From positions 248,160 to 312,159 of the forward strand of contig JAKMXF010000317.1 of NCBI GenBank assembly GCA_024704765.1: a stretch of DNA of 64,000 bases. The letters run 5' to 3'. Of the stretch, positions 6,071 to 59,181 are shown piece by piece (position 1 is the stretch's first letter; the number at the start of each line of letters is the position of its first letter). The DNA comes from Oopsacas minuta (taxonomy: Eukaryota; Animalia; Porifera). The notes beneath the pieces were generated by a model. That model searched no databases. It saw only the letters and a program-made list of their open reading frames with translations, and had not been told where the DNA came from. The translations under genes and the position numbers were made by a program.

Positions 6071-7638
6071 TCAGGGCGTTCAATAAGTCTTGCGGGTCAT
6101 GATATATCTTAGGAGTTAGTCAAGTAATATATCTAACTTTCATATATTATAAGCCCATATAGTTAAACTCCATATACTGAAAGTTTAAGCTTATTCAATA
6201 CAAATTATGAATTTTTGAGATAGTTACGTGTAGTCAATTTATACCCACTGTTGAATTTATGGCTTCAAAGGATGATAATTTCAACCTCAAATGGCGAGCT
6301 TACATAGAGTTTCGCACTATACTCAAGATTCAGCCCGTACAGCTCTTCAGCGAGTTACAGGAGATATTGTGCGTGGATTGCCCTTCCAGATCTACTGTAG
6401 AGCGATGGGCTGCCCGTTTTAGATCTGGTGATGCTGATGTCACAGATTTACCTCGATCTGGAAGACTGGTATCCGCCACCACTTCAGAGAATATCGCACT
6501 CATTGAAAGTATGGTCATGGAAGACAAGTGCATTACTGTCAATCAGTTAGAACAAAGTATGGAGATTTCATCGGGAGCTATTCATACAATTCTGACGACT
6601 GAGCTTGGCTACCGATCGATTTGTGGGAAATGGGTCCCGCATAAGCTCAGTGAGAATCAAAGGTTGGTACGACTGAATATTACCAAGAAACTCTTGGAAA
6701 CTTATGAGAACTGCGATTCTAGACGCCTAACAGAAATTATTACTGGTGACGAAACGTGGGTGTACTATTCAACACCATATAGCAAGTATAAGAAGCGATC
6801 ATAGGTGAGGGGCGACGAACAACCGGCGAAAATTCCTTGGCCCGACTTCAGAAAACCTAAGATTATGTATACCGTAAAGTGGAGCTACTTTGGCCCACTG
6901 GATTTGCATTAGCCCAAATATCAAAGCTCCAAAGAAACTAGATTAGATTCAGTATTGTACTTGAAAATGACTTGCCAAATTTTTAGCGAATTTTCAAATA
7001 TCGGTAGACAATTCCGAAAACAAATACAATATCTATTCAATAAGTAAGAACTTTCAATGTTTGGGCTAAAGCAAACCCAGTGGGCCAAAGTAGCCCCAGT
7101 TTACGGTACCATCTTCTTCAGTAGTAATGGAATTGTCTTGCAATTACCTTGTGAGAGTGGCAAGACTGTTACTGCTACTTTCTTTAGAGCAAGTGCTTCC
7201 AAATTTGATAAAAAATATAGAAATTACCGCCCGAAAACCGGAACTCGAGGAATGAAGATTTTTAATTGATAACGCCAGTTCCCATACAGCTAAGCTTACC
7301 AAAAATTTCTTGGATGTAGAAGGGTTAGAATTACTTCCCCATCCACCATACTCACCAGACCTAGCTCCGTGTGATTTTTGGCTATTCCCCAAGCTTAAAA
7401 TCTACCTTCAAGGCAAAGATTTTAACACATTACAAGCACTCGGAACGGGCCTATACCAGTACTTCAAATCCATCCCCAAGAAGAGTACAGAAATGTGTTT
7501 TACAAGTGGGTTGAAAGGTTAAAACTTTGTGAATCTGCAGGAGGGGATTACTTTGAATAAATAATATAGTGAATTAGTGTGTATAGTGTTTGTATCATAT
7601 TCTATGATATCACCCGAAAGACTTATTGAACGCCCTAG
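6071..7638 (+). mobile_element. mariner (DD34D) transposon, inactivated
   Basis: TIRs agggcgttcaataagtctt, TA flanks, WVPHKL, TGDETW, DNASSH-34aa-D with HPPYSPDLAPCDF. Disrupted by a stop at 6802-6804, frameshifts and a MITE insertion. Confidence 0.92.
6872..7106. mobile_element. MITE inserted in the mariner transposase; second copy at 51107-51324
   Basis: About 45-bp TIRs (ccgtaaa.tgg.gctactttggcccactgg) with a TA duplication. Removing it restores the frame KIMYTIFFSSNGIV. Confidence 0.88.
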
Positions 7639-7689
7639 TAAGAAGTAAATAGCAAATTACAATTTGACAGTACAGGGTGTAACACAATA

Positions 7690-9033
7690 CAGGGTGTCTC
7701 ATAAGTTTTTTCACCTTATTCATCAAGCCAGTAAATTGTATTTATTGTAAAGAATCATTAGACTATTTGCCAATGTATTCACCGTTAAGTTCAATACAAG
7801 AATTAATGCGGTTTGGCATTCCATCGATTAAATTCTGGAGAATCGATGGGCTAATACCACTCCAGATATTTTCCAAGATTTTCGCGAGTTGTTTTAGATT
7901 AGTAGCGGGCTTCCTCTTGTCCAGCTCTGCCTGCATAATGGCCCACAGATTTTCTATAGGATTCAAATCTGGCGAGTTACTAGGCCATATATCTTTCGCC
8001 CAGAATCCTGGTAAATGATCAGAAAGCCACTTCTGTGTCTTTATAGCAGTATGAGCAGGGGCTCCATCCTGCATAAAAAAAGTGTCGGATATCTTTCGAT
8101 ACAATTTCCTCTGAGTCAGGGGCCCTCTCATCTTCTTACGTTTATAGGTAGGGAGACAGCACTTATCCAGTATTTCATTGATATAATAGTCCGCATTCAC
8201 AGAATGTCTTGGGGAGATTAGATGGAGTTCTGATAGTCCACGATGACTCATCATTCCCCAGACCATTAATCTTGGAGGATTTTTCACCGTTTCGACTGGA
8301 GTGATATTACGCGAACTGACGTCCCAAACCCGATCATTCTGTGAATTTGTAGGGTGAAAAAGCTCAAAGGGGCTTTCATCACTGAAGAAAACTCGCTCCC
8401 AATCAAGTGAAGTCCAAGATTTATGCTCAAGACAGAACTTGACCCTTTTAGACTTCTGTACTTCCGTCAATTTAGGGTTTGATGGCCGTTTATACGCTTT
8501 AGCCCCAATAGAATTGTGTAAATAACGGTGAACAGTATCTTTACTAATAGCAACATATTTACTTGAAATATATTTCGCCAATTTCCGAGTTGAATGCCAT
8601 CGTTTGCCTATGGATTTTCGAATTATTATTTTTGGGACCCGGGAAAGTTTCGGCGGACGTCCAGAACGAGGCTTGTCATTGAGCATTTCTCCAGCTTTTT
8701 GCTTTTTGTTCCAATTCTTTACGGTTCGAATTGTGACTCCAAGTGTGTCAGCAACTGTTCTTTGAGTGGAACCAGCTAGTAGCATACCTATCGCTCTCTC
8801 GCGGATGGATAATCTCGTCATTTTGACATCCATAATATTGAAATTTGATAATTATACAAAGTATCGCAAAATGAATCACAAAATTAAATATTTGATACTA
8901 CTCATGGTTGAGAACATTAATCAACTATAAATTGACAATACTAAAATAAATGGGTAGGTAGTAAATGAGGTAGACTGATTTCTGTTCAAATATATTGAAA
9001 TACTAATGGTGAAAAAACTTTTGAGACACCCTG
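7690..9033 (-). mobile_element. Intact Tc1-like DD37E transposon
   Basis: 26-bp TIRs (cagggtgtctca(t/a)aagttttttcacc) with one mismatch, TA duplication, and an uninterrupted transposase. Confidence 0.93.
7763..8833 (-). CDS. Tc1-family transposase, DD37E catalytic spacing, 356 aa
   Basis: Paired-like HTH N-terminus, FFSDESPF, FMQDGAPAH, 37 residues counted between D and the E of SPDLNPIE. Confidence 0.93.
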   Translation of the reverse strand: MDVKMTRLSIRERAIGMLLAGSTQRTVADTLGVTIRTVKNWNKKQKAGEMLNDKPRSGRPPKLSRVPKIIIRKSIGKRWHSTRKLAKYISSKYVAISKDTVHRYLHNSIGAKAYKRPSNPKLTEVQKSKRVKFCLEHKSWTSLDWERVFFSDESPFELFHPTNSQNDRVWDVSSRNITPVETVKNPPRLMVWGMMSHRGLSELHLISPRHSVNADYYINEILDKCCLPTYKRKKMRGPLTQRKLYRKISDTFFMQDGAPAHTAIKTQKWLSDHLPGFWAKDIWPSNSPDLNPIENLWAIMQAELDKRKPATNLKQLAKILENIWSGISPSILQNLIDGMPNRINSCIELNGEYIGK

Positions 9034-10361
9034 TAGATGACTACCTCACTGACCTATATCTATATAACCACACTCATATTTATTTAACTATAATAAAAAT
9101 TTTGCCATTATCCGATTATATCAATGCTTTGGTACCATTATTTATGCATATTCAAACTAATGTTCATGTCTATGTCCAAAAATATTTAAATAGTTATGCT
9201 CCCTATATCTTAGCAATATCATGGTCAAAGAACACAAGATCAATATTAGAAACCAGGCTGTAGGGATGTTATTAGGTGGGATGACGCAAAGACGCGTTTG
9301 CAATTTACTTGGAGCATCCTTGCGTACTGTCGGATGATGGTGGACCCAATACCAGAAGGGAATCTCATTGGAAAATAACGTGGTAGAGGACGGAAGGTTT
9401 CCTAATCAAAAATTGGAAAAATCATCATTTCTAAGTCACTAACAAAGAAACACCAATATACAAGAAAATTGTCGAGAAAACTTACGTCTAAGGGTATTAT
9501 AGCATCACATATGACTGTCCAAAGGTATCTCAAGAATTCTATTGGAGCAACTAGTTATAAAAGACCGCTTCAGCCAAAATTATCCGAAAAACAGATTAAA
9601 GATCAGATTTCTTTCTGTGAAGAGAGAGTCAATTGGACTGTTCAAGATTGGGGTATGGTGTTATTTTCTGATGAATCCCCCTGTGAATTATTCCACACAC
9701 CGAATAAACAAATTGATCGTGTATGGGCAAGGGAGAAAGAATCAGTGGCCCCTCAATGAGAAAATTTAATTTTCTTCTAAGATACATGTTTGGGGAATGA
9801 TGTCATACTATGCGATATCAGAACTGCATATTATACCTAAGTCCTTTACAGTTACTGTAAAATATTTTATCGAAGAAATACTGAAGAAGTCTCTGAAGAT
9901 CGCACTAAGGAGGAAAAGGATGACTGGATCTGTTCTAGTCAGAAGATTACTCCCAAACATGTCCAGGTACATCTTTCTGCAGGACGGGGCACCAGCTCAT
10001 AATGCCATAAAGACTCAAGATTGGTGTAAAGACAATCTGAATTCCTTTTGGGAGAAAGGTATTTGGCCAGGCAACTCGCCAGACTTAAACCCAATAGAGA
10101 ATTTATGGGCCATCATCCAAAGCAAAATTAATGAAATAGAAGTAGCAACCAATCTAAATATGCTTGATAAACAGCTGAAACTGGCATGGTCTCAGATTTC
10201 CCCTGAGATTCTCAACAATCTGGTGAGTGGTATGCCCAAAAGGATTAAAACATGTTTCAAATATAAAGGCGGATAGTTAGGAAATTAGATTGGACAGTGA
10301 ATTCATCGAACGTTAATTTATGCATATTTTTTCTGTAAGTCATCAATTATGTTACACCCTG

Positions 10362-13379: not shown

Positions 13380-13434
13380 TTATTATAAGGAAACATAAAC
13401 AAAAGTATGAATATACTAGTAAAATAGAAAAATA

Positions 13435-14283
13435 TCAAAAAATATTGAGACAATGTAGACCTCCAATACAAACTACAATAACTCTTCCTCTATTATCTAC
13501 TGTAATATCGGTGGGATTAGTTAATGAAATCTTGTGTATCAATTCTAATTGAGAGTTGAAAATAGAAATAGAGTGAGAAGAAAAACCTGTAATAAGAATA
13601 TTGTTAGAGTTGTTAATAAAGAAGAAGTATGGAATATACACCTGTAATTTATATACTCTAGAAATAATACTCTTATGCAGAATAAGATTGTAGTTGTACA
13701 GATGAAGACAAGGATTAGATAGATCTAGAATATAAATGAATTCTTTTGTAAGTTTAACATCAAGAGGAGATTCGAGGTTATCTTGTCCAAACTGTGTTCT
13801 GAAAGTAAGTTCTTTGGACAGTATCTGAATACGATTATTATTAGAGTCACATATGTATACCTCTCCGTTAGATTCATTGAATGTCAGACCAAGAGGATCA
13901 TCAAATTCTAATTCTCCTTTCCCAGGTTTGCCTATTATAGAAATAAACTTCCCATTCACTTGATAATTCAGAATACAGTCGCTAATCTGTGAAATTATAA
14001 TTCTATCTCTACATATAGCTAACCCATTTGGATGATACATCTTTCCTTCTCCTTCCTCATCTCCAAATTTATACATAATCTTACCATTACAATCGAATAC
14101 TTTCACACAATTATTCAAGTAATCTGCTACATATATATCTCCAGTAGAATTATCAATAGTCACTCCTTGTGGTCTATAAAGATTTTCTAGCCCCCTTCCC
14201 CTTTTACAAACACTGACTATAGGTTGTATCTTGCTCTTATAGTCGACAGAGAATATTCTCTCCAAAGGACTAGCTGTAGCCAT
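13435..14283 (-). CDS. NHL-repeat protein (propeller only), 282 aa
   Basis: LYRPQGVTID...IYVADYLNNCVKVFD, FDDPLGLTFN...YICDSNNNRIQI repeats. Paralogue of 37885-38727 and 21097-21983. Confidence 0.9.
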   Translation of the reverse strand: MATASPLERIFSVDYKSKIQPIVSVCKRGRGLENLYRPQGVTIDNSTGDIYVADYLNNCVKVFDCNGKIMYKFGDEEGEGKMYHPNGLAICRDRIIISQISDCILNYQVNGKFISIIGKPGKGELEFDDPLGLTFNESNGEVYICDSNNNRIQILSKELTFRTQFGQDNLESPLDVKLTKEFIYILDLSNPCLHLYNYNLILHKSIISRVYKLQVYIPYFFFINNSNNILITGFSSHSISIFNSQLELIHKISLTNPTDITVDNRGRVIVVCIGGLHCLNIF

Positions 14284-14778
14284 TAGTTCTGTTCTGTAAC
14301 TATGAAATACTTCAAATAATATAACTTATCTATATGACTATAAGTAATGAGCTCTAACTATAAATTCAAATCAACACAAATACCTATACAGAGAGATATC
14401 AAATTTCTACAATTAAATGAATATAAGTAGAATACAGAATATTCCGCTATTCTTATATTAATATTTGATCCAGTAGTCCTAACTTGTCCTCCCATGCGAT
14501 ACATAGAGCCACTTAAGGTTTGAAATGGGAATTTCTTTGGGATTTCTCACATGGGAATCGTTCCTATTTCCCGCAAGATATTCATAGGATTCCTTCTCAT
14601 TCCTAAGTCAACCCGAGGGACGCCTCCACGGGGGGCATAGTGGGCAATCCCCCCCTGGCAAGATCTCGTGCCACAGGTCATCCCTTGGCTCAATATGCAA
14701 ACTCTAAATTTCGCCTCCCTTTGCTCGCATAACAATTAGAAATGTCAACTCATGGGAATATGCAAATGTAACTAAAGG

Positions 14779-15483
14779 TCAATTATCAATATTAGAAATA
14801 TAACTAGTAACAAATTCTGTAATCTTGTTACGAATAACTATAGTAGCTTCTAGAGAGTTAAAAGTGGAGTTCAAGTGATGGGAGGAAGTTATCCGTCTGC
14901 GGTATGCCTCCCATTCCTGTGGTTTTTCTCCCTTAATTTAGTGGTTCTGTAGGTCGATGGAGAGGTTCGACAAAACGATATAGTGCGATGGTGCATTAAG
15001 GAGCTTAGCTCCCTTAACTTCGAGAAGTGGGGGACTTGGATAGCAAATGGCGTTCCATTGATGTAATGGTACTGCCCCTGTGAACTCATCAAATTTAACA
15101 ACTCGTTCGAACGAGTATCTGTCAAAATAGCGGTCTCCAGGAGGTTTATTGTAGAATGATTGTCCGAGTCCACGCAAGTTGTTTGAGTCGTAGTAGTTTT
15201 TCCAGTCCTGTGGAGCCCCACTTATACAACACTTGGGCTTGGGCTGCGTACTTTGAGATTGACTGGATGAACCTGTACTCTTCTGGCTGCTCCCAGATGA
15301 GATCAAAAGAAGATGCTCCGTCGACGAGTCGCTGATAAATATTACGCTTTCTTTGAACGGCGGGGGGAGATCTTCTTGGGATTTGGTAACCCGTGGGGAA
15401 TTTGCCCACTGGTCATACGACGAGCCCTTTCGAGTATTGGCAATGGCAGCATTGACATGACAAGGGGAACAGGGTCCTGACAT
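14779..15483 (-). pseudogene. rep: Endogenous CRESS-DNA virus (circovirus-like) Rep gene, copy 1, frameshifted
   Basis: Stitching three frames gives IYQRLVDGASSFDLIWEQPEEYRF (oligomerisation-like) - VLYKWGSTG(T)GKTTT (Walker A) - FYNKPPGDRYFDRYSFERVVKFDEF (Walker B) - LLEVKG - YIVLSN (motif C) - WEAYRRRITS (Arg finger). This is colinear with the circovirus Rep pattern YWKP..KWWDGY.GEEVVVIDDF...VETKG...ILITSN...EALYRRITS. Confidence 0.85.
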
Positions 15484-15797
15484 AAGTTACGGACATGAGT
15501 AGTATTTTCGAGTATAATCATAGCCGTAAGGGAGTACGATAATTCGAGTGGGGTAACTCATTTTATAGATTTACAAGCCAAAAGTTTCGCATACTTACTC
15601 ATATATTAGGAAGGGGACTACTGATAACTTGGGCGGGACTATGCTCAAATATCACCACAGGGAGATTAATGAAACATTTAGGAAGAACTATGCATGTTGA
15701 ATTAAAAGAGAGCTTTGTACTTCGTAGTATTGATGGATAATGAATTCAGAATCCCACGACACCGTAATACCTCGAATAATATCCGGGGCCGCCCGCG

Positions 15798-15852
15798 GGA
15801 AAGGAGTCTCACTAGTTCCCATATTATATGGGAACTAGTGAGACTCCTTTCC
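15798..15852. other. Perfect 23-bp-stem hairpin upstream of rep (candidate viral origin stem-loop)
   Basis: GGAAAGGAGTCTCACTAGTTCCC-ATATTATAT-GGGAACTAGTGAGACTCCTTTCC. A slightly mutated copy lies at 36656-36709. Confidence 0.9.
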
Positions 15853-16199
15853 AGCCAAAGAGAGAAGGGAACGAAAGATGTATCCAGATTATATCACCGA
15901 AGATTAGATCCCTGAATATTGAATTGCCATAATCATTTTGATTCTCTGGCCTTCTTGAGAGTGAAATATCAGGAAGTGCAACACTAAAGTAACATGTATG
16001 CACTGGGCATTACAGGGCTGTAGGAAGTTAAGCCAAACGATTTTGTAGATATCGTTTTCCGAAGTATGTTAATGCAAATACACACATGACCTAATATATT
16101 AATACTTAACATACATGATAGAAGTTGATAGAAGTTTTGAAATTTGAATCACAGGTACCCCTCAATGTGACAAATGTACTGACAGCATGATTCTGACTA

Positions 16200-17446
16200 A
16201 AAGCTAACTCATTATGCAACTATTACGTCATCATGACTGTACAAACATTCAAAATTTTCCAAATTCGAAAGTTTTAGAATTTCTTATACATGAAGCATGA
16301 AGTACAGAGATTACTAACCAAAAGCCACGTAAGAGCTCGAGCATTACCACAGAAGGCCATTTAATAGGATTTGGAAGAACCATACAGTCAAGGGACAAAA
16401 GTATTCGACCACACAAATATATTGTCATAAATTGCATACTCTTTCCCGCTCCTATATATACTGTGTAGTCTATATTCGTAGCTGCAGTCTAGTAGTTTGC
16501 ATAGAATATCATATGTTTTCAACTTTTCAAAAAATGTTTTCGATTTACACTCTTTGAAGGTGTTAATTAATAATAATTATTAGATTGTTATTGATAGTCA
16601 AAATATGTGGTAATTCAAAACCTATTAAGAATCAAAAATTTCTAACTTGATATTTGAATTCTACATAGGCGAGTTACCCCAGATACAAATTTCCAATGGG
16701 ATTGAACAATTTTTACCAAAGTTATAGAAAAATTTCAATTTGTGCCACTTTTGCAAAAGTGACACAGGTGGCAGGAAAAGCGCCACTACAAGGAAATCAA
16801 CTAGGGTTATGAGGAATAAGTCAAAGTAATATTTTCGAATGATATGACTATGCTAACCCTTGAATTCCAAAATAACCTATTAGTTGCGGCCACTTGTGCC
16901 ACCTTGGGCAAATGTGGCACAAATTGCACAAATTGAAATTCTTCTATAACTTTGGTAAAATTGTTGAATCCCATTAAAAATTTGAATTTGTGGTAACTCG
17001 CCTACGTGGAACCCAAATATCAAGTCAGAAATTATAGATTCTTAATAGGTTTTGAATTACCACATATTTTGATTATCAATAATTATCTAATAATAATTAA
17101 TAATTAACACCTTCAAAATGTGTGAATCGAAAATATTTTTCGAAATTCTTGAAAACCATGTTATTCTATGCAAATTACTAGATTGCAGCTATGAATATAG
17201 ACTACACAATATATAGGAGCGGGAAAGAGTATACAATTTATGACAATATTTGTGTGGTCGAATACTTTTGTCTCTTGACTGTAGATATTAAAAATTCACA
17301 AAAATTAACCTCGAGGTACGTAGTGCTGAGTATATCCCGTCATATAGATGCCAAAAGCACTGACAAATATAGTTGTTTCATACATTTGTTAAAATAAGGG
17401 ACAAGTTAAAGGATATATCTGCCCTAGCAAAGCGAAGCCCGCTAGT
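16200..17446 (+). repeat. Dispersed repeat with a Helitron-like 3' end (gcgaagcccgctagt), interrupted by a foldback MITE; uninterrupted relative at about 48290-48600
   Basis: ttactaaccaaaagccacgtaa...ttaccac and aaaattaacc..gagg.acgtagtg are shared with 48390-48520. Confidence 0.6.
16385..17281. mobile_element. Foldback Tc1-like MITE with about 360-bp TIRs (copy 1)
   Basis: TA|cagtcaagggacaaaagtattcg...cttgactg|TA. Long arms surround a core of about 190 bp that is the reverse complement of the core at 59540-59725. Confidence 0.9.
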
Positions 17447-20310: not shown

Positions 20311-20347
20311 ATTACAAAAATACAATCCAAGTTTCGTCGTTATTCGT

Positions 20348-21000
20348 GACGAAACTTGGATTGTATTTTCTGAACCTCTGCGTAAGTAACAAAGGAAATC
20401 GTGGCTCCCAAAAGGTTCTTATCCCCTCGGAAAGGCACGTTCGGACTTCCGAGACGATAAGGTTCTCTACAGCATATTTTTGATGCGTATGAGCAAGTGA
20501 CTCAAATTACTGTGCCTAAAGGAGAACGACTCAATGGAGAATTTTACGCAGATAAATGCATGAGAGAAGTCGAGAAAGTCTATTAAATACGACGTCCGCG
20601 TACTGAAATTCGAGGAATCAAAGTACTCCACGATAAAGCCAGACCTCATGTTTCAAAATACGTTAGGGGAATCATTGAGGATATCGAATTTGAAACGATA
20701 GAACATCCTCCGTATTCCCCAGATCTATCACCTTGTGTTTTTTGGCTATTTTCTGAGCTGAAAAAACATCTCGGAGGACAGCTATTTCATACCCGACAAG
20801 AGCTAGGAAACGGAATTTACAACCTCAATTCAGTGGACAGAGACGAGTACTAGAATAACATTTTCGAAATGGGTTGAAAGGCTACAATTATGCATAGATG
20901 TGGAGGGGGGATATTTCGAACATTTTATGTAGAAATTTGATTAGTAAGTTGTTGTAGTGTCAAGATATTAAACAAAGAGGGAACTTTTTGAATGCCCTAA
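20348..21000 (+). mobile_element. 3' half of a mariner element
   Basis: DETW at the left break, HDKARPH, EHPPYSPDLSPC.FWLF, and a right TIR (gaactttttgaatgccct). Confidence 0.8.
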
Positions 21001-21096: not shown

Positions 21097-21983
21097 TTAC
21101 AAACAAAAATTGAGACAATATAGACCTAGATTACCAACTACAATAATTCTTCCTCTGTTATCTACTGTAATACCGGTAGGACAAGGTAATGAAATCTTGT
21201 GTATCAATTCTATTTGAGAGTTGAAAATAGAAATAGAGCTAGTAGGATAATCTGTAATGAGAATATTGTTAGAATTGTCAACATGGAAGAACAATGGAGA
21301 AAGCAGCTGGAATCCATCTCCTCTATAAATCACACTCTTATGTAGAATATGATTGTAATTGTACAGATGAAGACAAGGATTATTAGAATGATCAAGAATA
21401 TAAATGAATTTTTTGAGAGTTTAATATCAAGAGGGTATTTGAGTTTATCTTGTCCAAAATGTGTCTTGTAGGTAAGTTCTTTGGACAGTATCTGAATACG
21501 ATTATTACCAGAATCACATATGAATATCTCTCCGTTAGATTCATCGAATGTCAGACTACTAGGATCCTCAAATTCCAATTCTCCTTTCTCAGGATCCCCT
21601 ATTCTAGAAACAAACTCTCCATCAAGTTGATAAATCAGAATATAGTTGCTCCGATGTGTAATTAGAATTCTATTTAGAATTATAGCTAACCCATTTGGAC
21701 GTTTCATCTTTCCTTCTCCTTCCTCACTTCCAAATTTAAACATAATCTGACCATTATTATCGAATGCTTTCACACAATTCTTCCAACTATCTGCTACATA
21801 GATATCTCCTGTGGTATTATCAATAGTCACTGCTTTAGATCCGCAGAGATTTTCTAGCCCCTCTCCCCATTTACAAACACTGATTCTAGGTTGTATCTTG
21901 CTCTTATAGTCTACAGAGAATATCCTCTCTAAAGGATTAGCTGTAGCCATTAGTTCAGTTCTGTAACTAGAATAATGAAACAA
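21097..21983 (-). pseudogene. NHL-repeat paralogue with a 1-bp frameshift
   Basis: Same N-terminus (MATANPLERIFSVDYKSKIQP). A 1-nt loss in the A-run near 21410-21420 (AAA GAA TTC in paralogues) splits the ORF, and the C-terminal blades continue in 21097-21333. Confidence 0.8.
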
Positions 21984-24900
21984 TTCAAATAATATAACTT
22001 ATCTATATGACTATAAGTAATGAGCTCTAACAAAAAAATTCAAATCAACACAGAGACCTATACAGAGAGATATCAAATTTCTACAATTAAATGAATGGAA
22101 ATAGAATTGAGTATATTCCGCCATGCTCTAATATTCTTATATTTAAAACTACACCACAAATACAATAGTAATAACCAACTCAAATTCCAAAAACGTGTTC
22201 ACTTCAATTGTTTATTTGACCGACTTTCTGTATTGCTAGAGAAAAAACTTTGTTATTATTCGAAAGTATAGCGTTTGTGGATTACGAAAATGTCGTCAGA
22301 ATTGTAAAATGTGTGATGACATAGCATTGAGGTTTTGAAAATTTTTCCATTCCTGTCAACTATAATGTGTTATTTGACTGGCTTCTCATTATTATTTTGA
22401 TATAAAATTTCTTCTACCTACTATTGAGTATTGGTGGATTATGTGTTTAAAATTTCTTTCAAAAATATTATTTACTTTTTGAAATATTTTATTTTGAAAA
22501 ATTCAAAGAAGTTAGACTAGAGTCACTTCAGTTGCTATTTGACTCACTTATACTCATCAGATTTAAACGAAATTAGTATCATTGGAAAGAGCAGATTTGA
22601 ACGTTTTAAGTAATATGTTTGTATTTTAAAAACCTTTACTTTTAGTTACTTTTTTAGTGAAAGTTTTTAGTGCCACGACTCCCTTGAATTTACCCACCTA
22701 AAAGTCAGAATTCTATTCTGAAATTATATATGCATACTTTAGTGATATGGATGTTCATGAAAGTTAAATTTCATTAAAAATATTAACAAATCGCGGAGCT
22801 AGAGGAATTCAAATTTTAAGGCGGGAGTTAGAGTGGTAGGGGATGAATCACATTCTACATAAAGTAGGGTCTCTTCAAACTTATGTTTCTCACCCTAAAT
22901 CTGACTGAATTTCAATTATTTTTAGGCTAATCGATAGTTGAGACATAGACGTTTATTACAATATATTTTCGGGGAACGCTACAAATTATCACCAGTAAAG
23001 CCCGCAAAACTCGATAAATTCTCAGGTTTTTGTGAATTACGAATTCTAACTTTGAAATCAATTCTTGAAGTTATTTCTCTTCAGAACCCCTTCAAAATTT
23101 ATAGATACCTTCTTTCGTATCTTATAATTCAATTTCCTTAAAAAACAACAGAGGGTCGCTAGTACTTTTTTTTAACATTTGGTGGTAATATATTTTGAAG
23201 GGTTCATTTTCATTTTGAGTCATGTTAAACTTCATTCTTGCGCATACAAGTAAACACGTACGTGCCTATTAACTGTATGTAGAGTGACTAGAGTCTTTGC
23301 TAATTCAAAATTACAATGTAACATGAATATATGTAAATTAATAGTATAGTTTGGTTATAGATTAAGAGTTGTGTTATATCGCGGTAATTTCGAAAAGTGA
23401 CAAGGTAGAGTGATGTTAATGGTGGAACATGGGTCACCAATGGTAACCCATGACCCATCTGACACATCATACACGCGGCCCATGACCAATTGACCCATTA
23501 CCGGTATAGGATCAGATATTGGTTGATACGTTATCCGAGATTCTTCAGTACAACAAGATTTCCTCCAAATACAAATTAGAAAACTTGTATTCGTTGTATC
23601 AAAATAGCATATTCTTAGAACTGCCTCAAAATATGACAAATCACATATTTGAGTCTGTCCTAAAATGGTTGACTAAGTATGTTAGTATGTCTATATAAAA
23701 TAGACATACTAACATATATGTATAGTGTATATATATATATATACATGTGATTTCTGCTGTTCATACCTTTAGAAAATAAGACACCAAATTGAGCATGTGC
23801 ACTGACACCTAGTTGCTGCACCTGATATTTGAAATTGTTCTAATCTGTATTTTCCACACCTTTTGACACCTCTGTATGTTAGCCTAACCAGAATGTAGGG
23901 TTTTACAATTAGGCAAAATGTATAAAACTAATTCTGGCGGAGTGTTTGGATTAAAATTAGCATTGTAATGTATTTGTGTTGAAATAGACTGCAATTCATT
24001 GGCAGATACATTCTATTAAATATATATACACTGATTTATCATATAATTAATCGTATTTTCACACCTTTTAGTGAACATTTCAAAATTATCCTACAGCTTC
24101 CACTTGTTAAATAGGGGTAAACGGGGATGTAGAATTCAATTTTAACATTTATAAATGTCTAACAAGATTAGTAAAATTCAATTTTATTTATATTTGCTAA
24201 AATGGATATTTAGTAGAATAATATAGTTTCAATAATCCACTAAAATTAATTCGGGAAAATTTAAGTCAGCACAGACGGTGCCATGATTCGGCTGCATGTA
24301 TAGCCGTATTTTAGTAGGCAATGCCACAATTAATTATTATAGGTTCAGCATGTATTAATCAATAATTAAACAGTTAGTGGATTCAATATAAATGGATCAG
24401 TAATGTGAGGTGTTTCAATATAATTCAAAATATTGCATAATATATGAGCCCTACTATTCATAATAGGCCAAGATGCAAACACTTGGTCTATACGTATATA
24501 ATTAATGAATTCTCAAAAGCAAACGAAGAGCGCTAGTACAGAGGAATTAACCAGGAAATGCAAGAGTTAAACAATTTTGTACTCTTTTTAGCCTAAATAA
24601 TGTTATATGATATTCATACACAAAGTGTCCAACCCTCACAGTATCATTTATCTATCCCGATTCCCGACGTATTTCTCCCTATTTAACCCCCATATCAACT
24701 TTGATAATTCAATATAAATAGGTCGTTAATAATATTGTATGGATATTGGATAATGAAGGATATTTTGTTAAAATATGGGAGTTAACAATTGCCATTATGG
24801 ATTGATTTCTGATTTTGAAAACATATGATTATTGACAAGCATTGAATAACTACTTAGAAATTCGAATATATGCTATATACAAAATTGATTATCCATAGCC

Positions 24901-26265
24901 TATCATAAATATTATAGCGCAAAATTTTGGGTTCAAACTTCACGGTCTGAAACACGTTAGAAATCCCGATTTGAAGTAAATACTATATTGGACAATATTA
25001 TAACATTATCTAGTTGATCGGGGAACCACAAAGAGGTAAGAGTACTTCTACCCGGCAAGCTATGTTAGAGTTACTCTAACATAGCCTGGGCCTCCAGAAA
25101 ATCAGATTTTAAATTCGCCTTCATCGACCATTTACATTTTACACTAACCAATATATGGGTAGTACAAACTATACTTGCTACCTTAGTCGAACCATGTTTT
25201 AACAAGGCTGGGACAATCATAGCCGAGATTAATCTGCTCGAAGTCGTCGATCTGTATCATTCTCTAAACATTTGGGATTAATTGCAGTTTGGATGGTCTC
25301 TTGACTCGAACATATATATAATGAATAATTCGAGACGTATATAACAATATATTATAACGTGCGTGTAATTAAATACGAAACAATTTACTCGAAATCGTCG
25401 ATCTCTATCATTCTCTAAACATCTTCTTCAAAGTATAGTTGAGATTAGAGAGATGGACTCTTGACAATAAACTAATACAAATATTCAATATTACGACAGA
25501 TATATCTATACAAGATTAAAATACCTGAATTTACGATCACAAGCCTTTCAAATTATCACTCCCTTAGAAATAAAGTTTGTCCTTGTATTGTGTAATCTAT
25601 CAGGCAATTTTAGTTAAGAATATCCCATTTAATTAATGCAACCTATATACAAGTATAAATAGATGCCTTCAGCACAGATTGTGCTTTTATTTTCTGTCAG
25701 ACATATTCCAATCAGACTTAGACCTTTAGTGGAATTTGTCGGAATTCTTGCAGTCTGACCTATCACAGTAGTGGAGATTGATCGAACCTATTACAGTTTT
25801 CCGTTTGGTAGTGACTGAAAAACAGGAAGATCTACAAGCTGATTAAACATATGGGGTCATTTTGACATGGCTCGGATAACTTCGAGATGAAAATTCACAG
25901 ATGAAAATTCACAAAATGCAAGGTATAACAAGCCGTTGTCTAAGGCCTTGTTATACCTTGCATCCTTAGTACATGCAAAGGAGCGACACACGCATCAATT
26001 CAAAAGTGGTACGACAATGTCGTAAAATCTGTTGAATACGAGATATACTTTTCTTGGTGCTTATTGGCTGGCCGTGTATATTATATTATCTCATGGCCGT
26101 AAGGGACAGTCAAGTTGGTCAGGTTTCAACCGAACCAACATTTGGTCCACTAATGCTATAGTTTTAGCTAACCTCGGCCAACTTCCATATATTTCTGTAT
26201 ATGTCAACCTGACCAATAGAAAACTGCTTGCTACTGTCCTGTATATATATATATGTGTATATATA

Positions 26266-32890: not shown

Positions 32891-35800
32891 CTAATTCCTG
32901 TGTTTCATGTTGTGAATATGCCAACTAATTTGGACTCGTAAACTATTATCAATACTTTGTTGTATTAATGCCATAAAATGAGAAGATGCTTCATCTGAAG
33001 ATAGATTTGGCGTTAATACATCTTTCAGATATGCAATGTCACTCTCACTGCGTAATTCAGGCATTCCAGTATATTTCATCATTGTAAAGAGAGTAATAAA
33101 CAAACTAGAATGTTTTCGAATAATTTGGTAAGCATCGACACACACTTTGGTAAAATATTTAAAATTATCACAACCAACTCCGCCTAGAACATGTATGAAA
33201 TCTGGTGTAAGAATAAAAGAAACGGGTTCCCTATCAATGCCGAATTTCCTTTTACGGTTACCCAAAAAATGTCCGAAATCAATATGAAACAAATTACCGT
33301 CTTCACAAACCATAATGTTGTCATTATGCCTATCTCCGATTCCCAAAATATAAGTAGCTACGCAATAACCTGCGCAAGAGTACAGAAATTTCTCTTTGGC
33401 CTTGTTTAGTTGCTCTTCTTCAGGGTTTAAATTTTGCAGCCAATTTAAAAGCACTTCTTTTTGAAAAGCTTCCAAAATATTGACTTTGGCTTCCCTCTGA
33501 ATGTTGCATACAGTGACAGCGCATTGTATAATTTCTATTATTCCCTCTTCAAATCCAGTAGAGAGGCAGCCATAAGGTATAAGGTGTAAATCTAATCCAT
33601 TTACCAACCAAATATTCTCCATTATTCGGAGCATTTGAATGATAAGCATATCTTGCCGTAGATCATCTCCAATTTTAACCAGGATCTTAATATTAGTAAA
33701 TTTGCTGAACGAATCGTTATTAAGGAACTCCAGCCATAAAGGCTTTTTCTTCGAATCCATAATTTTGACTTTAGAAACATCAACTTTATTAACAGATACA
33801 AGGGGATCATAAAAGGGGCAGAATTTTTCGGGAAGTTGAATTTGGGAAATATGATTGCGTATGTTTTCAACAGTATTAACCGTATCGTCGAGGAATTGAA
33901 AATTATACATCACTTTCCTATAGTTTTCTGTTACATTTTTAATAAAACTGACTTGTGAACTTAAACAGGATAGTAATTCGGAATCACAACCTTTCAGGTA
34001 CGCTTCTAATAAGATAGAAAATCTTTCTCTATATTGGCACGTTTCTATCTCAGAACGTAAATACCAAAAATAATAATGCCCAAATACTCTACAAGATAGA
34101 GCACGGTCTAGAAGTAGCTGGGACAACGGATTATCGTGAAAACATTCAAATTTGAGAACTTGAACTAGTTGAGGCAAATATAGGATAAGATCGCCATTTT
34201 TCATCGATTCAAGATACTTTGCTCCTAAATTTCTGACTTTCGCATCCGCGAATGTATAGCTCAATAAATTTAGAGCAATATCCAGAGTAATTGGAGACCA
34301 TCTGGAAAGTAAGTAATGACATTGTCCAATTTTGACAGGATCAGCCCAATTAATACTAAGTAGGTACATTGGAAGGGCGTAAGGCCTCTGGCTACAATAA
34401 AATGAATACTTTTGGAGAGTATCTTTTTCAGCACTTGTTAGAGTAGAAAAATGACCCTTTGATAATATACTTTCAATAATACATGACTCAGCTCCTGGAT
34501 CTAATTCAGGAGCAACAGTTTCATCAGTAAAAGAATCTATACGATATTTACATTCTACAGGATGTATATAGTCATCAAATTCTAATATTAGGATGGCAGA
34601 TTTTGAATTCTCTGGGTTAATAGTAGGAGATCCTGCAGTCTTTAAGTCAACACCGCTTTTCGCCCCATATAAATAATTTAAATCTGCATTGTTATTTCGG
34701 TTGTTTATTTCATCACTTGGCCATAGATCTAATTTCTTAATCCCAGTCTGGAGAATTTCTCTGTAATCAAATACCTGAAAATTTACAGATGACAAGATAA
34801 TATCTTTTGAAACTGTTGGGCAAGGTAAGTTTTCAGAATGCAAGACATTCTGATATTTTTCGCAAGTTCCTTTTAACCTAAAGTGTATGCGTGCTTCTCT
34901 TGGCAGATTTCTAGCTGGAATGCAAAATTGTGTCCATTCATTCCATCTTGGGTAATCAGAAATCGCCACATTATTAGTTCGTTTAGATTCGCACAATAAA
35001 ATCCCCCCATGCAATAGAAAAATTTCCATATATATATATGTGATGCCAGGAACAAAAGTGTGTAGATGATCAATACCATAAATTCGAATACGAAAAAAAT
35101 TTGGAATCTGATACAATGCAATATTGGCAACCTGAGAATGATGTTGTTCAGCTGGACTCTGGACACCAGAAATATTTGGAATATTCTCTTCACTAATATT
35201 GCAAGTTGAAGGAGAAAATGTAAAATTTTCTTTTGGTATTGCAATAAATTCAAGTATATTTTTTTCATTAATAATAGTTTTTTGTATACAAGAAAGGTAT
35301 AATAGAGGTTCCTTTCCGTGTAAAAAGTTTACCTTATGAAAAGTACGAAGGACAAATTGTTTGGAAGTAATTGTAGGTAAACCAAGTTTGTCAAAAAATT
35401 GTTCCAAAAGTATGTCTGGTGAAACAATATGTAAATTTATCTCCAGAATCTTTGTTCTGTAATCATTGTATACCTTAACATGACGTATACAAGGTGTGCT
35501 ATCAAAGAGATTGATGGTATTTGTTAAATATTGGCATTTGAAAACAATATGGATCCCTCTTTTGAATCGATCTTTTTCGAATATTATCAAACTTTCTTCG
35601 AGAAAAAGATATTTCGCTATTGTTTGTCAGATCAAAATTGTACAATCCAAAGGAGATAAGTGAACCAATAATTTGATCAGAGCGCCTTAGTTCATCAGAA
35701 ATAGCAGGATAAGAGCATTCTTCAATTTCATCTGTATCCACACATTTAAACAAGTTACTTTGTAACCATAATTCGATTTTGCAGTTAGAACGGAGCATTT

Positions 35801-36179: not shown

Positions 36180-36514
36180 TCACTAATTTTAGTTGGAAGG
36201 AAAAACCAGTTAACATCTATACTATTAACTTTAATTAGGAGCGCCCTCATCGTACTTCGTTTTTTGGCAAACGCCACTGTGCATCTCCCTAAAGGAGAGG
36301 AACTAATCGCCAAACGAGAAATAGAAGGATAGTCCGGGCTTATGGCGTATTGGCATCCTCTAAACAATAAGGAATATTACATAATATGGAAATTGTGTAA
36401 TTTGTTCAAATATAACAAAATAGTTATCCTAAAGGAAACATATACAAAAGTATGAATACTAGTAAAATAGAAAAATATCAAAAAATATCAAAAAATATTG
36501 AGATGATGTAGACC
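36180..36514 (-). repeat. NHL 3' end (GLHHLNIF*) plus 3' flank, truncated
   Basis: Matches 12560-12830 joined to 13377-13460, without the Helitron-like insertion. Confidence 0.75.
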
Positions 36515-36915
36515 ATCACTTAAGTGTTGCACATCCTGATATTTTACTCTTAAGAAGGCAAGAGTATCAAAATGATTATTGCAATTCAATATTCAGGGAT
36601 TTAATCTTCGGTGATATAATCTGGATACATCTTTCGTTCCCTTCTCTCTTTGGCTGGAAGGAATCTCACTAGTTCCCATATAATTTGGGAACTAGTGAGA
36701 CTCCTTTCCCGCGGGCGGCCCCGGATATTATTCGAGGTATTACGGTGTCGTGGGATTCTGAATTCATTATCCATCAATACTACAAAGTACAAAACTCTCT
36801 TTTAATTCAGCATCCATGGTCCTTCCTAAATGTTTCAATATTCTCCTCTGTGGTGATATTTGAGCTTAGTTCCGCTCAATATATCAGTAGTCCCCTTCCC
36901 AATATATGAGTAAGT

Positions 36916-37347
36916 GGGACTGGAAAAACAACTACGCCTCAAACAACTTTGCGTGGACTCGGACAATCATTCTACAATAAACCTCCTGGAGACCGCTGTT
37001 TTGACGGGTACTCGTTCGAACGAGTTGTTAAATTTGATGAGTTCACAGGGGCAGTACCATTACATCAATGGAACGCCGTTTGCTATCCAAGTCCCCCACT
37101 TCTCGAAGTTAAGGGAGCTAAGCTCCTTAATGCAGCATCGCACTATATCGTTTTGTCGAACCTCTCCATCGACCTATAGAACCACCAAATTAAGGGAGAA
37201 AAGCCACAGGAATGGGAGGCATACCGCAGACGGATAACTTCCTCCCATCACTTGAACCCCACTCCTAACTCTCTAGAAGCTACTATAGTTATTCGTAACA
37301 AGATTACAGAATTTGTTACTAGTTATATTTCTAATATTGATAATTGA
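36916..37347 (+). pseudogene. rep: Endogenous CRESS Rep helicase domain, copy 2
   Basis: One frame reads GTGKTTTPQTTLRGLGQSFYNKPPGDRCFDGYSFERVVKFDEFTG...LLEVKG...YIVLSNLSIDL*NHQIKGEKPQEWEAYRRRITS...DN*. Confidence 0.87.
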
Positions 37348-37884
37348 CCTTTAGTTACATTTGTATATTCCCATGAGTTGACATTTCTAATTGTTATGCG
37401 AGCAAAGGGAGGCGAAATTTAGAGTTTGCATATTGAGCCAAGGGATGACCTGTGGCACGAGATCTTGCCAGGGGGGGATTGCCCACTATGCCCCCCGTGG
37501 AGGCGTCCCTCGGGTTGACTTAGGAATGAGAAGGAATCCTATGAATATCTTGTGGGAAATAGGAACGATTCCCATGTGAGAAATCCCAAGTGGGAAAACC
37601 CAAAGAGAATTCTGTGTTAATGAGAATCAAAAGTAATTCCCATTTCAAACCTTAAGTGGCTCTATGTATCGCATGGGAGGACAAGTTAGGACTACTGGAT
37701 CAAATATTAATATAAGAATAGCGGAATATTCTGTATTCTACCTATATTCATTTAATTGTAGAAATTTGATATCTCTCTGTATAGGTATTTGTGTTGATTT
37801 GTATTTATAGTTAGAGCTCATTACTTACAGTCAAACAGATAAGTTATATTATTTGAAGTATTTCATAGTTACAGAACAGAACTA

Positions 37885-38727
37885 ATGGCTACAGCTAATC
37901 CTTTGGAGAGAATATTCTCTGTCGACTATAAGAGCAAGATACAACCTATAGTCAGTGTTTGTAAAAGGGGAAGGGGGCTAGAAAATCTTTATAGACCACA
38001 AGGAGTGACTATTGATAATTCTACTGGAGATATATATGTAGCAGATTACTTGAATAATTGTGTGAAAGTATTCGATTGTAATGGTAAGATTATGTATAAA
38101 TTTGGAGATGAGGAAGGAGAAGGAAAGTTGTATCGTCCAAATGGGTTAGCTATATGTAGAGATAGAATTATAATTTCACAGATTAGCGACTGTATTCTGA
38201 ATTATCAAGTGAATGGGAAGTTTATTTCTATAATAGGGAAACCTGGGAAAGGAGAATTGGAATTTAATAATCCTCGTGGTCTGGCATTTAATGAAGCTAA
38301 CGGAGAGTTATACATATGTGACTCTAATAATAATCGTATTCAGATACTGTCCCAGGAACTTACATACAAGACACAGTTTGGACAAGATAACCTCGAATCT
38401 CCTCTTGATGTTCAACTTACAAAAGAATTTATTTATATTCTAGATAAATCTATTCCTTGTTTTCATTTGTACAACTACAATCTCATTCTACATAAGAGTA
38501 TTATTTCTAGAGGATATAAATTACAGGTGTCTATTCCATATTTCTTCTATATTGACAATTCTAATAATATTCTTATTACAGATTATTCTTCTAACTCTAT
38601 TTCTATTTTCAACTCTCAATTAGAATTGATATACAAGATTTCATTAATTAATCCCACCGGTATTACAGTAGATAATAGAGGAAGAGTTATTGTAGTTTGT
38701 AATAGAGGTCATCTCAATATTTTTTGA
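37885..38727 (+). CDS. NHL-repeat protein (propeller only), 280 aa
   Basis: Intact ORF and close paralogue of 13435-14283. Confidence 0.9.
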   Translation: MATANPLERIFSVDYKSKIQPIVSVCKRGRGLENLYRPQGVTIDNSTGDIYVADYLNNCVKVFDCNGKIMYKFGDEEGEGKLYRPNGLAICRDRIIISQISDCILNYQVNGKFISIIGKPGKGELEFNNPRGLAFNEANGELYICDSNNNRIQILSQELTYKTQFGQDNLESPLDVQLTKEFIYILDKSIPCFHLYNYNLILHKSIISRGYKLQVSIPYFFYIDNSNNILITDYSSNSISIFNSQLELIYKISLINPTGITVDNRGRVIVVCNRGHLNIF

Positions 38728-38779
38728 TATTTTTCTATTTTACTAGTATTCATACTTTTGTATATGTTTCCTTTAGGAT

Positions 38780-41473
38780 CAGGGTTCTATCTAGGATTTT
38801 AAATTTGGGGGGGAAGCTTTGAAATCCTTAGTACCCAATTATCAAAATATTATAACCTTGAAGTAAACACCAAACATTTAATCTAATTCTTAATAATGAA
38901 GATTTCTATCGTTAGTAAAACATGAAAGGGTCGCTCATAAATTGATTTTTCTAATTTTCATTCCTTTATAATGCTCCAATACTGCCTCTAAATTTTCATC
39001 AGATAGGTGATCGGAACCTTCAATACATATGCGCATACAATAATCAAGTGTCTCTTCACTCATTCGGCTGCGAAGTCTCGTTTTTATTAATTTCATATTG
39101 CTGAAACTCCTTTCGACTGTGGCTGTTGTCACTGGTAATACTTCCAAAATAGCGGCTATCTTTGCCAAGTTTGGAAATGCAGCATATATCTCTCCATTCC
39201 CCAGCAGTCTTGAGAGTACAAATTGTAAGGACCTACCTTTGTACTGTAGGAAAATTAAGCGTCGAAACAATTTCCACTCTGACTCAGTTTCTTTAGCTTC
39301 GATGTCAGGCTGTGATATACCTTCATCTCCTCCTACATTGATCCTTTGTTCTACACTATAAAAATCCGTGAGTGTCTTAATCTGTTCCATTCCGTACTTT
39401 GATAATTCTTCTTCTGTCCAGGAAGATGGCGAGGGTCAAAAACAGACATGGCTGAAATGAGTTCAGTAGACTCCATCCGGACATTAATATGATCTATGAC
39501 ACTTTGGAGGTATGGTCGATACACCTTGTGAAGAAATTCACTCTTCTCTTCTTCCAATACCACGATGTGTTTCTCTCCTAATTGAGCATCATCAGTAAAA
39601 ACCAAAGAATGTTCCTTGAACCATGTGCTGCTTGTTACATCTTCTTTGAGCTCCAACAGCCGTTTAGTAGTACTAGCAACCATCGATGGCACACTCGCAA
39701 GATCAATATCTTTGGCTTGTAGACTTCCTTGCAATTTCGCTACGATATGAAGAACATCTGATAGCATGTAAATACATGCGACAGTCTTGTACTTCAATAA
39801 GAGAGTTGCAATTCCATGTGATTCTGCATCCCCAGTTTCTGCGTATATCTCTTCAAATGTACTGACCAAAGCTGGTAAAATCCGTCGCACAACAGACACA
39901 GCTCTCTCACGGGCTAACCACCGAGTATCACTAGGCTTCTGCATTTTGATTTCAGGAGCCTGAAGTTCAGCTTGAATCTCAGCAAGTTTCTCAGCTTTTT
40001 TGGGAGAAAAGTGAAAAGCCTTCCAGATTGTTAATAGTGTACCCAAAACTCTCTTCACTACTGTATGTTCTGATGCAGCATTTAATACAGCAAGTTGAAG
40101 CTTATGGCAGCGACAGTGCACATAGATAGAGCTTGGTGCATGTAATCTTAGCCGTATTTGAACACCACTTCTGTGACCCGACATAGTATTTGTACCATCA
40201 AAACCAAGTCCACGCATCTTATCAAAACAAATGTCTTTGGAATGAAGAAAAGTTCGAAGGTAACAAGCGATCGCTTGAGCATTTTTCTCCTTCGCATGCA
40301 AAATTCCAAGAAAATGTTCTACTGGTTTATTATCTTCTATTCAACGTGCACATACTGACAACTCTTCTTGTGATGCTACATCCGTACTTTCATCTGCCAT
40401 TAATGAATAATATGGGCTAGCACTGAGACTGGTGATGATCCTCTTCTCGAGTACATTGCTAATACTTGAGAGAAGTTCCACTATTGTGGTATATGATTCA
40501 TATGTCGCATTGTGTGGACACTTCTCTCTGTGAGATTTCAGTATGATGCCCCATTCTCAATTTGTAAAGTAATGAGGTTTTCAAATGTAGTTGTATGGGG
40601 GATATGATGCTTAACCAAGAAATATAAGGATCGGATAAGCTTTTTCATAATGTCACGGTTCTGTTTCTTCTCCTCCGCAGTGGCTGCTTACAATTGTTCC
40701 ATTACATTACCATGTTCCTCTGTTGATTGAGACATAACCATCTTTCGATCGCTGCTGCGTGCCAATCAGATTTCTCATGTTGTATTAGCAAACTTTTCGC
40801 CTTCACCCAATTGTTTATAGGTCTTGTCACCCATGCACCTCTCGCTTGTACCGATGATTTACCATGGACCTTACAAATCGTACACACCATACCATTTTGG
40901 GATGAATCGTAGTCCATCCAAGTATATTCATTCTTCCAAGTAGGATTATAAACTAAGTTGTCCTTGTAGGCTCGCATTTTTTTGGCTGTTTTAGAAGCGC
41001 ATGGAGTAGAAACAATCGTATCTTCCTCTGGTGGTTGTGGTTCAGACTCAGATATATTGTTGCAATCCGAAATATTTCTTTTAGTTCCTCGAATGATAAC
41101 AAATTTGTCCATGTGGTAACACTGGGTTAATCAATTATTACCTATGTGAAGTTAACAAAAAGAATTTTTTCCGCTGTATTATACCTCAAGAATTCGTACA
41201 TCACTAATATATAGGCGGCTGGATAGTGGGAAGCTGTACTTTCCAACATATGTTATTATTTCGCAGTTGCAAATTGTATGAAATGTGATTCAGGTTTCCC
41301 ACATATTATTTATTTACACTTCAAATAGTATTTTCACAATGAATTGATATTCTAATAATTTATCCATTGAATAATATATTCGATTAATAGTACATTTTAT
41401 AAGATTTTTGGGGGGGAAGTTGAAGAGTTTGGGGAGGAAGCTTCCCCCCACCCCCCCAGTAGATAGAACCCTG
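38780..41473 (-). mobile_element. hAT transposon (ZMYM1/PRKRIR-like transposase with TTF-type zinc finger), frameshifted
   Basis: 14-bp TIRs cagggttctatcta. ORFs carry MVCTICK...QHEKSDWH, GFDGTNTMSG, HCRCHKLQL, SDTRWL and PVTTATVERSFS. The 8-bp flanks do not match. Confidence 0.9.
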
Positions 41474-47221: not shown

Positions 47222-47388
47222 AAAAGTGCAACCTGTGCGACAGTTTAGTCTATTAAATTCAATTTGTTTAAAAAGTGGCACTATTAATTGGATTAAACCT
47301 AACCTTTATAGTGCCTCCAATTAATAGTGCCACTTTTTAACAAATTGGATTTAATAGACTAAGCTGTCGGCACAGGTTGCAATTTTTA
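47222..47388. mobile_element. Palindromic MITE with about 70-bp arms
   Basis: tgcaacctgtgc.gacag.ttagtctattaaat...aaaaagtggcactattaattgga and its reverse complement. Confidence 0.7.
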
Positions 47389-47829
47389 TTTCTTTATTCA
47401 TCACACAGACCATGGATGTCATATGTTTCGCCAATTTCCACTTATAACTCGATAATCGTGGATATTATGGTCGAATCAGGATAGCCATTTTATAGTATAC
47501 ACCCAACTTCCCATACCATGTAAGAAAATAGGTAGAGTATTTCCTTCCATCACTATAATAACCTGCTAAAGGAGTATTTTGTTTGATATAATGTGTGGTA
47601 ATAATACTTGGTAGTGGGTGTGCATACACAAATTCGATGGCATCCTTGTATCACACATAAATGTGGATTATAGAGTAAACTGTTAATCCCTTGAATAGCA
47701 GACGGACAGATTATTAATTTCAAGGCCCCTTTTGAAGGAATTTACGAATTATGTAAACACGTAATCTCTCACACTCCACAACCCTCAATCTTCTACTACT
47801 ATAGCTATAGCTGATAGAGATTACAATGA

Positions 47830-48191: not shown

Positions 48192-49139
48192 TTATATGTA
48201 CGATACTGTTTTCTTGAACTGTAGTTATGACGTCACTAAGCCTTTCTGGCAGTTATAGTTGTAATTGTACTTATTCCTGTGCACAATATTATTATTATCC
48301 ACAAATTATTACGTCATCATAACTACGAAAATTGAATTTCCCCAAATTTCGAGAAGTTTTGAATTTCTTAATACACGAGAAGTGCCGAAATTGCTAACCA
48401 AAAGCCACGTAATAGCTCCATTATTACCACAAAAGGACATTAAATAATATGGATGGACCATGGACAATATAAATTAAAATATCCGCAAAAATTAACCATG
48501 AGGCACGTAGTGTCAATATATCTCGTCGCGTAGCGACCAAAAGTACTGACATTGTAGCTGCTTCCTACTTATGCTAAAACAAGGGACAAAGCTTAATATA
48601 TTATTTCAATGCCGAATTATCATATATTAGTACTATTAAGGATAGGAATTGGTTATAAGAACATTTTTCTCTTTTCTCTGCTCCCGATGATGTTCTTATA
48701 ACCAATTACTACTGTAAGTCTAAGTGTTACTAAAAAAGTCATTTAGTGTTGGCTGGCTCAACTCTTGAACTTGGAGTCAGCACAAGAATATATCGTGGTT
48801 TCGATTGTAGATGCCTCTTTTCCATTTTTTGAACATTTTCTAGCGGCACTATCGCCTCTTTACAATGTTCAGGATAAAATGGAGAGGTAACCTCAACACA
48901 TAGCAGGACGTCCCACCAAAAACGGGACAGTTGGAAAGTATGCTGATTCATAATTCATGAATAAAGCATCATCTTCGAGTCTAGTAATTTTTAAATTAAT
49001 TATTGCTAAAGCAATTTAGCTATGGCAACAAGTGTATGTGCTGTTGAGTTAGTAATGTTCCAACTTATTTCACATAAGTTCAGATGAATAAATGTGAACT
49101 GATATTTTTGCAATTAATTAAATGAAAGTAAATTTAATA

Positions 49140-59149: not shown

Positions 59150-59181
59150 TATAGATAATCAAGAAACATTGTACGTATATA

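Follow-up and report, generated by a model that had tools for sequence, protein, structure and literature searches.

The perfect palindrome at positions 15798-15852 of the window (the whole 64-kb stretch of DNA analysed) is most likely a scar on an endogenous CRESS virus element of an already known type. The reading that we favour, with a probability of about one half, is a fold-back duplication at or beside a dead viral origin; that the palindrome arose by fold-back of one kind or another is considerably more secure. These and all other weights given to the explanations are judgements, not computed values.

In the mechanism proposed, a template switch in the probable origin-bearing region of an endogenous CRESS virus, whose rep is now broken, would have duplicated a 27-base stretch next to itself in inverted orientation. 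The switch may have taken place either at an old TATT/A cut site, which would now be the axis, or beside a decayed TATTAC stem-loop on the rep strand at a distance of 6 bp. It could have occurred during viral rolling-circle replication, at integration or in later host replication, and would precede the time when the two copies of the element separated or were last homogenised. The palindrome presumably has no origin function today, because no intact Rep was seen in the window.

The palindrome and its second copy

The features of the hairpin, of its duplicate and of the host DNA around them are the following.

15798-15852, no strand: perfect palindrome with 27-bp arms and a 1-nt axis at 15825
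15821-15829, plus strand: A/T apex ATATTATAT with TATT/A, the would-be cut lying directly after the axis base
36518-38773, no strand: copy 2, an inverted duplicate of 13387-15990 without 15209-15592 (384 bp)
36656-36709, no strand: copy 2 of the hairpin, with three differences from copy 1
36910-37347, plus strand: copy 2 of the rep helicase part, with one internal stop
15724-15906, no strand: near-identical stretch between the copies (183 bp), its flanks about 10% diverged
13435-14325, minus strand: host NHL-repeat gene flanking the element and duplicated with it
20317-20369, 48647-48707, 25916-25963 and 23678-23716, no strand: four more perfect hairpins with 17-22-bp arms, single-copy in the window

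The palindrome comprises 55 bases, its arms being paired at 27 of 27 positions around the single base 15825, and is the longest perfect inverted repeat in the 64-kb window. The sequence-only reading from which this work started had given its sequence and coordinates correctly and had described it as a 23-bp stem with a 9-nt loop. The hairpin is indeed perfect, but the would-be loop ATATTATAT is self-complementary and pairs with itself, so that the arms are really 27 bp long around one base. Copy 1 is predicted to fold at -34 kcal/mol (z about -9.8), with 26 pairs closed by a 3-nt loop, and none of 200 shuffled sequences folded as well. Under a mononucleotide model, about 1e-7 arms of 23 bp are expected in 64 kb. 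The shuffles overstate the rarity of the hairpin in this genome, because the window holds the four other perfect single-copy hairpins listed above; fold-back copying therefore has a background here, and the host itself appears to make perfect hairpins. Within the window the arm sequence is present at four places only, namely both arms of each of the two copies, and neither tandem duplication nor inverted symmetry beyond the arms was found in 15380-16090. Both versions of the hairpin occur in contigs of four public runs from one sample, possibly the source sample; therefore the hairpin is not an assembly artefact. The apex matches positions 3-9 of the genomovirus nonamer TAATATTAT, as given in the part of PMC5399927 available to us, that is 7 of its 9 letters. 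The heptamer ATATTAT is frequent (73 sites in the window), and by a rough inference near 1% of random palindromes would have an apex of this kind.

Copy 2 lies 21 kb from copy 1, and the duplicate includes the host NHL gene. The hairpin had been reported as retained there, which holds for its presence and not for its perfection: it differs from copy 1 by a substitution in the loop, another in the stem and a deletion of 1 bp, 15 perfect pairs are kept, the predicted loop has 7 nt and the apex is without T at -4. In the Rep frame the copies differ by 1 synonymous against 8 other codon changes, and their stops and frameshifts are not the same. Both rep copies therefore decay neutrally, and it follows that copy 2 cannot count as independent evidence of conservation. 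A synonymous excess of 7:4, also seen between the copies, was rejected, as it lies in a non-Rep frame (36914-37234), one of six tested.

The divergence between the copies is patchy, amounting to 4.4% in the NHL gene, 2.2% in the 3' part of rep, about 10% in the 5' flanks and about 1% in the hairpin core. In 15724-15906, whose partner in copy 2 is approximately 36602-36784, only 2 substitutions and 1 indel were counted, all of them inside the hairpin (permutation p 0.0009). This pattern suggests either gene conversion with the palindrome at its centre or a chimeric origin of copy 2; the near-identity of the 183 bp could equally be due to conversion after palindrome breakage or to an origin region having been conserved in two variants of the virus. 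A candidate for a third copy (X3 record 24) was set aside, as it is more simply read as a merged graph path across 98 identical bases. The element has another inversion junction at the end of copy 2, where an inverted segment from the 3' flank of the NHL gene, with a short tandem repeat, occupies 36421-36517.

The animal domains found in the window were NHL repeats, PI3K, the Rel homology domain, IGFBP and DNA transposases. The NHL-repeat open frames number four (1095-2369, 13435-14325, 21097-21998 and 37843-38727, three of them tested by Pfam) and, together with the uninterrupted frames for PI3K (32891-35626) and Rel homology (55481-56791), indicate an intron-poor animal genome; in this respect the window presumably resembles glass sponges. 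Remnants of Tc1/mariner, hAT and pogo-like transposases were recognised at 6211-10276, 38935-41130 and 57254-58932. Long imperfect palindromic repeats, MITE-like in form, lie at 47213-47394 and at 16383-17283 and 59176-60089, the family of the latter two being very abundant in contigs.

The broken rep gene and its viral relatives

The remains of the viral element and its surroundings were located as follows.

14788-15361, minus strand: broken CRESS rep, linker and SF3 helicase part (cE 4e-19 and 5e-53)
15362-15570, minus strand: weakly recognisable, broken nuclease end of rep, with the motif III region near 15438 (cE 0.29, E 0.1)
14477-14780, no strand: GC-richer stretch beyond the rep stop, multi-copy like the 3' part of rep and without a protein family; its left end is approximate (107-bp depth bins)
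15756-15792, minus strand: candidate decayed origin stem-loop, a GC-rich 9-bp imperfect stem with a 19-nt loop ending in TATTAC (15769-15764)
15870-15935, minus strand: weak motif-I-like stretch beyond the hairpin (hhalign E 0.051)

The rep that had been recognised from the letters alone proved to be genuine and of CRESS type, as supported by profile and sequence matches. A profile built from five intact relatives gave a firm match over 15361-14788, a region damaged by frameshifts near 15204 and 15178 and by a stop at 14938. The helicase part, in the copy 2 reading with X at the single stop, is 55-62% identical to metagenomic Reps of 374-414 residues, which contain HUH motifs I-III, Walker motifs, PF00910 and a weak PF02407. 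One of these Reps (P0004) was placed among Cressdnaviricota clusters with a score of 0.98, and the profile of the nearest metagenomic Reps matched viral Reps of solved structure, the best being 7lar (E 2e-21). The window sequence groups with P0004/P0005 at 98/84 in a helicase tree of 55 rows; this tree is without named-family references, includes one of the 11 viral loci, leaves out frameshifted or redundant proteins, and its bootstrap is rough and unsettled.

The element is flanked by NHL, PI3K, Rel and transposase genes. Rep homology and integration in host DNA with decay class it as an endogenous CRESS virus element, the firm homology covering the helicase part and the window's own nuclease part being barely recognisable. 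The stretch 14477-15440 is apparently multi-copy in the host, with up to 12-13 variant contigs per position and pieces about 87-88% alike, and in some contigs its junction with NHL sequence falls at a different point. Possibly the element spread along with NHL gene arrays. The nearest Reps (P0002-P0015) lie several per contig in ENA contigs of 9.4-12.7 kb, as would be the case in concatemers of small circles.

An alignment scan of viral contigs returned 11 loci with 24-32% identity. Direct scans of viral contigs with P0001, P0004 and P0009 gave no relative, the search for short relatives gave none, and BLASTP of the open frame of copy 2 against P0004 gave no match. Matches in a phage collection had 23-38% identity. 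The lone return of the metagenome scan (L001) was a chance match to an ABC permease and was dropped. No capsid gene was recognised on either side of the hairpin: Pfam gave 0 families for 7 read-through frames, and the 100-aa frames of the 11 viral loci gave matches in the helicase part only. No literature on endogenous CRESS elements in sponges or on this Rep clade was found in a partial library.

The hairpin and its probable origin neighbourhood

The distance of about 300 bp between hairpin and rep proposed by the sequence-only reading was measured to where a fragment ORF ends (15486), and is unconfirmed as a distance to rep, the start of which is unplaced. Firm Rep homology ends at 15361 and weak homology ends at about 15460-15570. 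The missing nuclease motifs require 84-86 further codons and the five intact nearest Reps have 56-96 residues before motif I; therefore the rep start would lie at, near or beyond the hairpin. By the 84-86-codon spacing motif I is expected near 15690, a place with a weak match. Between rep and hairpin the DNA resembles rep itself in being rich in GC and CpG (CpG o/e of 1.0 and 0.87; the NHL gene has 0.32), and 15 of 170 background windows are equally CpG-rich. To the right of the hairpin the composition is like that of the host, 88 of 267 windows being equally GC-rich.

The GC-rich block noticed earlier beside the hairpin possibly forms the 5' arm of another stem-loop, a decayed one that carries TATTAC on the rep strand (15756-15792). 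This stem-loop lies 6 bp from the palindrome, is identical in both copies and has its TATTAC on the rep strand as in the relatives, at about 80 nt from the motif I expected by spacing (75-120 nt in five viral loci). Its score of 16, on a scale of TATTAC stems designed post hoc after the site had been noticed, is joint first among the 70 TATTAC sites of the window; of the four top sites, one is its own copy and two are unrelated sites that tie with it. The origin stem-loops of nine viral loci score 19-33. The TATTAC misses NANTATTAC at one position. Because of the post-hoc score, the overlong loop and the one deviating nonamer position, the stem-loop is regarded as a candidate only. Taken together, the broken rep alongside, the CpG-rich DNA, the rep-strand TATTAC and the TATT/A on the axis make it likely that the palindrome stands in an origin neighbourhood. 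A weak signal against this comes from the best motif-I-like stretch, which lies past the hairpin and would put the hairpin inside rep.

Viral origins have been described with stems of 9-11 bp and loops of 10-13 nt (PMC7826260, in the portion available) and usually bear NANTATTAC at the apex (PMC6186406, likewise). The comparison with the stem-loops of relatives called for earlier could be made with distant ones, at the 24-32% identity given above, the close ones being known as proteins. Nine of these 11 loci have an ordinary stem-loop with NANTATTAC on the rep strand, a 10-12-nt loop and an 8-15-bp stem, the stem-loop of one (L004) being taken from the TATTAC stem scoring and its listed nonamer; in the other two (L002 and L009) no NANTATTAC was found at an apex. 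The hairpin has a stem of 23-27 bp, as unusually long as had been claimed, and predicted loops of 3 nt (copy 1) and 7 nt (copy 2) instead of an open loop of 10-13 nt. It was also correct that the TATTA core stands without a canonical nonamer: ANTATTAC is absent within 15600-16100, and the apex holds neither NANTATTAC nor another family variant beyond the partial match to TAATATTAT. The apex with 5 bp of stem per side had 0 matches in 2.9 million viral contigs, and no literature on an origin stem this long was found in a partial library judged by title and start of abstract. The hairpin therefore fails the usual origin anatomy in three respects, namely an overlong stem, a self-pairing loop and the lack of NANTATTAC.

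Of the two options left by the sequence-only reading, a rolling-circle origin or a fold-back junction, the latter is preferred because the palindrome crosses the supposed loop to a 1-nt axis; a divergent origin, used as the hairpin stands, is less probable and lacks the three defining features just named. Such a passage through the loop was seen in no origin stem-loop among the viral relatives examined. The palindrome is a perfect inverted copy adjoining its template, as a template switch leaves it. According to the parts of the sources at hand, template switching produces whole perfect hairpins in one event (10.1101/2023.04.19.537475) and has been described at circovirus origins (PMC2690592). 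No pre-event sequence was found, the scans having given neither a third copy nor DNA of a close virus.

Among the competing accounts, the one that fares best also invokes a fold-back, placed inside the rep coding sequence at motif II, as part of a rearrangement that added about 270 bases, and unrelated to the origin; we regard it as unlikely. Of 617 positions, the best motif-I-like 8-mer is at 15929, on the far side of the hairpin, and its frame reads SSHI up to the axis, like P0004 and P0005 at motif II. In the chosen frame the summed score of this motif I/II reading was reached by 17 of 5000 shuffles, and in the chosen sub-region 1 of 300 was as good. Over the whole region the figure rises to 15 of 300; by HMM it is 15 of 200 with the clade profile and 185 of 200 with a broad profile of 24 Reps. 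A loss of 10 residues and a long insertion would also be required, whereas a colinear reading, in which motif I lies near 15690, agrees exactly with the 84-codon spacing, although its match is weak too.

Slightly less credence is given to the view that the hairpin is the virus's own intact origin, with a 23-bp stem, an A/T loop that opens and a cut at TATT/AT opposite to the rep strand. Its position near the 5' side of rep and the 7 of 9 letters shared with TAATATTAT agree with this. So do the T residues at -4 and -1, both present in the copy 1 apex, since Reps accept variant targets and prefer T at these positions (PMC7826260, same portion). Moreover, the hairpin region is the least diverged between the copies, and their decay is slight enough for copy 1 to have stayed perfect without any recent event (P 0.15-0.44). 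It must be set against these points that the stem is twice the described length, the loop pairs with itself and NANTATTAC is missing, that the relatives have their nonamer on the rep strand, that the apex is without a match in the viral contigs, and that copy 2 has lost the -4 T.

Lower still we place a replication error of the host in a non-viral flank, merely near the viral fossil. The four similar single-copy hairpins in 64 kb speak for it, as does the fact that the multi-copy part of the element stops near 15440 (85% cut-off) and nothing recognisably viral was found beyond about 15570. The background rate, however, would put a hairpin in only a few per cent of 600-bp stretches, CpG content is viral-like up to the hairpin, and the TATTAC stem-loop adjoins it. 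A MITE or a microRNA-like gene, suggested by the shape and by Rfam microRNA models at 23-29 bits, can practically be dismissed, as those bits are far under the gathering scores of 82-200, the arm is confined to the two copies in the window instead of the many loci of a host MITE, the contigs hold two versions against 75 contigs at a nearby true MITE, and the flanks, read directly, show no target-site duplication.

Significance and relation to known systems

As a fold-back scar, the hairpin matters little in itself. The element, however, links a clade of metagenomic CRESS Reps (P0004, P0005, P0009, P0082 and P0010) to an animal germ line, and this link gives a clue to the host of viruses that are otherwise known from environmental sequence alone. 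Should the palindrome prove to be centred on an old Rep cut site, it would document, in nature, strand switching at a rolling-circle origin; should close viruses share it, the range of CRESS origin forms would become broader. It is tempting to speculate, at long odds, that this animal group is infected by a CRESS lineage not yet described, which has long-headed Reps and uses a perfect palindrome of 23-27 bp with a non-canonical apex as its origin, perhaps as a hairpin end or hairpin intermediate and not as a classical loop. Were this true, the fossil would record both the host and a new origin design.

Compared with the origin stem-loop of CRESS viruses (Circoviridae, Nanoviridae, Geminiviridae and Genomoviridae; Cressdnaviricota), the hairpin is alike in the TATT/A core at its apex and may be alike in its place near the 5' side of a rep of the PF02407/PF00910 type. 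It differs in its 27-bp arms around a 1-nt axis, in the missing NANTATTAC and in the strand of its core, which is opposite to the rep strand that carries the nonamer in the relatives.

Broken CRESS reps are well described in invertebrate genomes (PMC6069186). The endogenous CRESS or circovirus-like reps reported by Dennis et al. in 2018 resemble the present element in the broken rep, the divergent lineage and the lack of a recognisable cap. In the portion of that paper available to us, where 'stem' does not occur as a whole word, they consist of rep-derived sequence only, whereas the present element may retain viral DNA that is non-coding; its Rep, unlike theirs as described there, groups with metagenomic Reps bearing long N-terminal extensions.

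The hairpins ascribed to template switching by Monttinen, Frilander and Loytynoja (10.1101/2023.04.19.537475, as far as available) are likewise whole and perfect, and several such hairpins stand in the window. In the present case the palindrome sits in a viral fossil and its switch points are putative. The melting-pot switching at the porcine circovirus origin (Cheung, as cited in the accessible part of PMC2690592) also makes or repairs palindromes at a viral origin by strand switching; it maintains a 10-bp stem with its loop, whereas here the loop has been absorbed into the palindrome.
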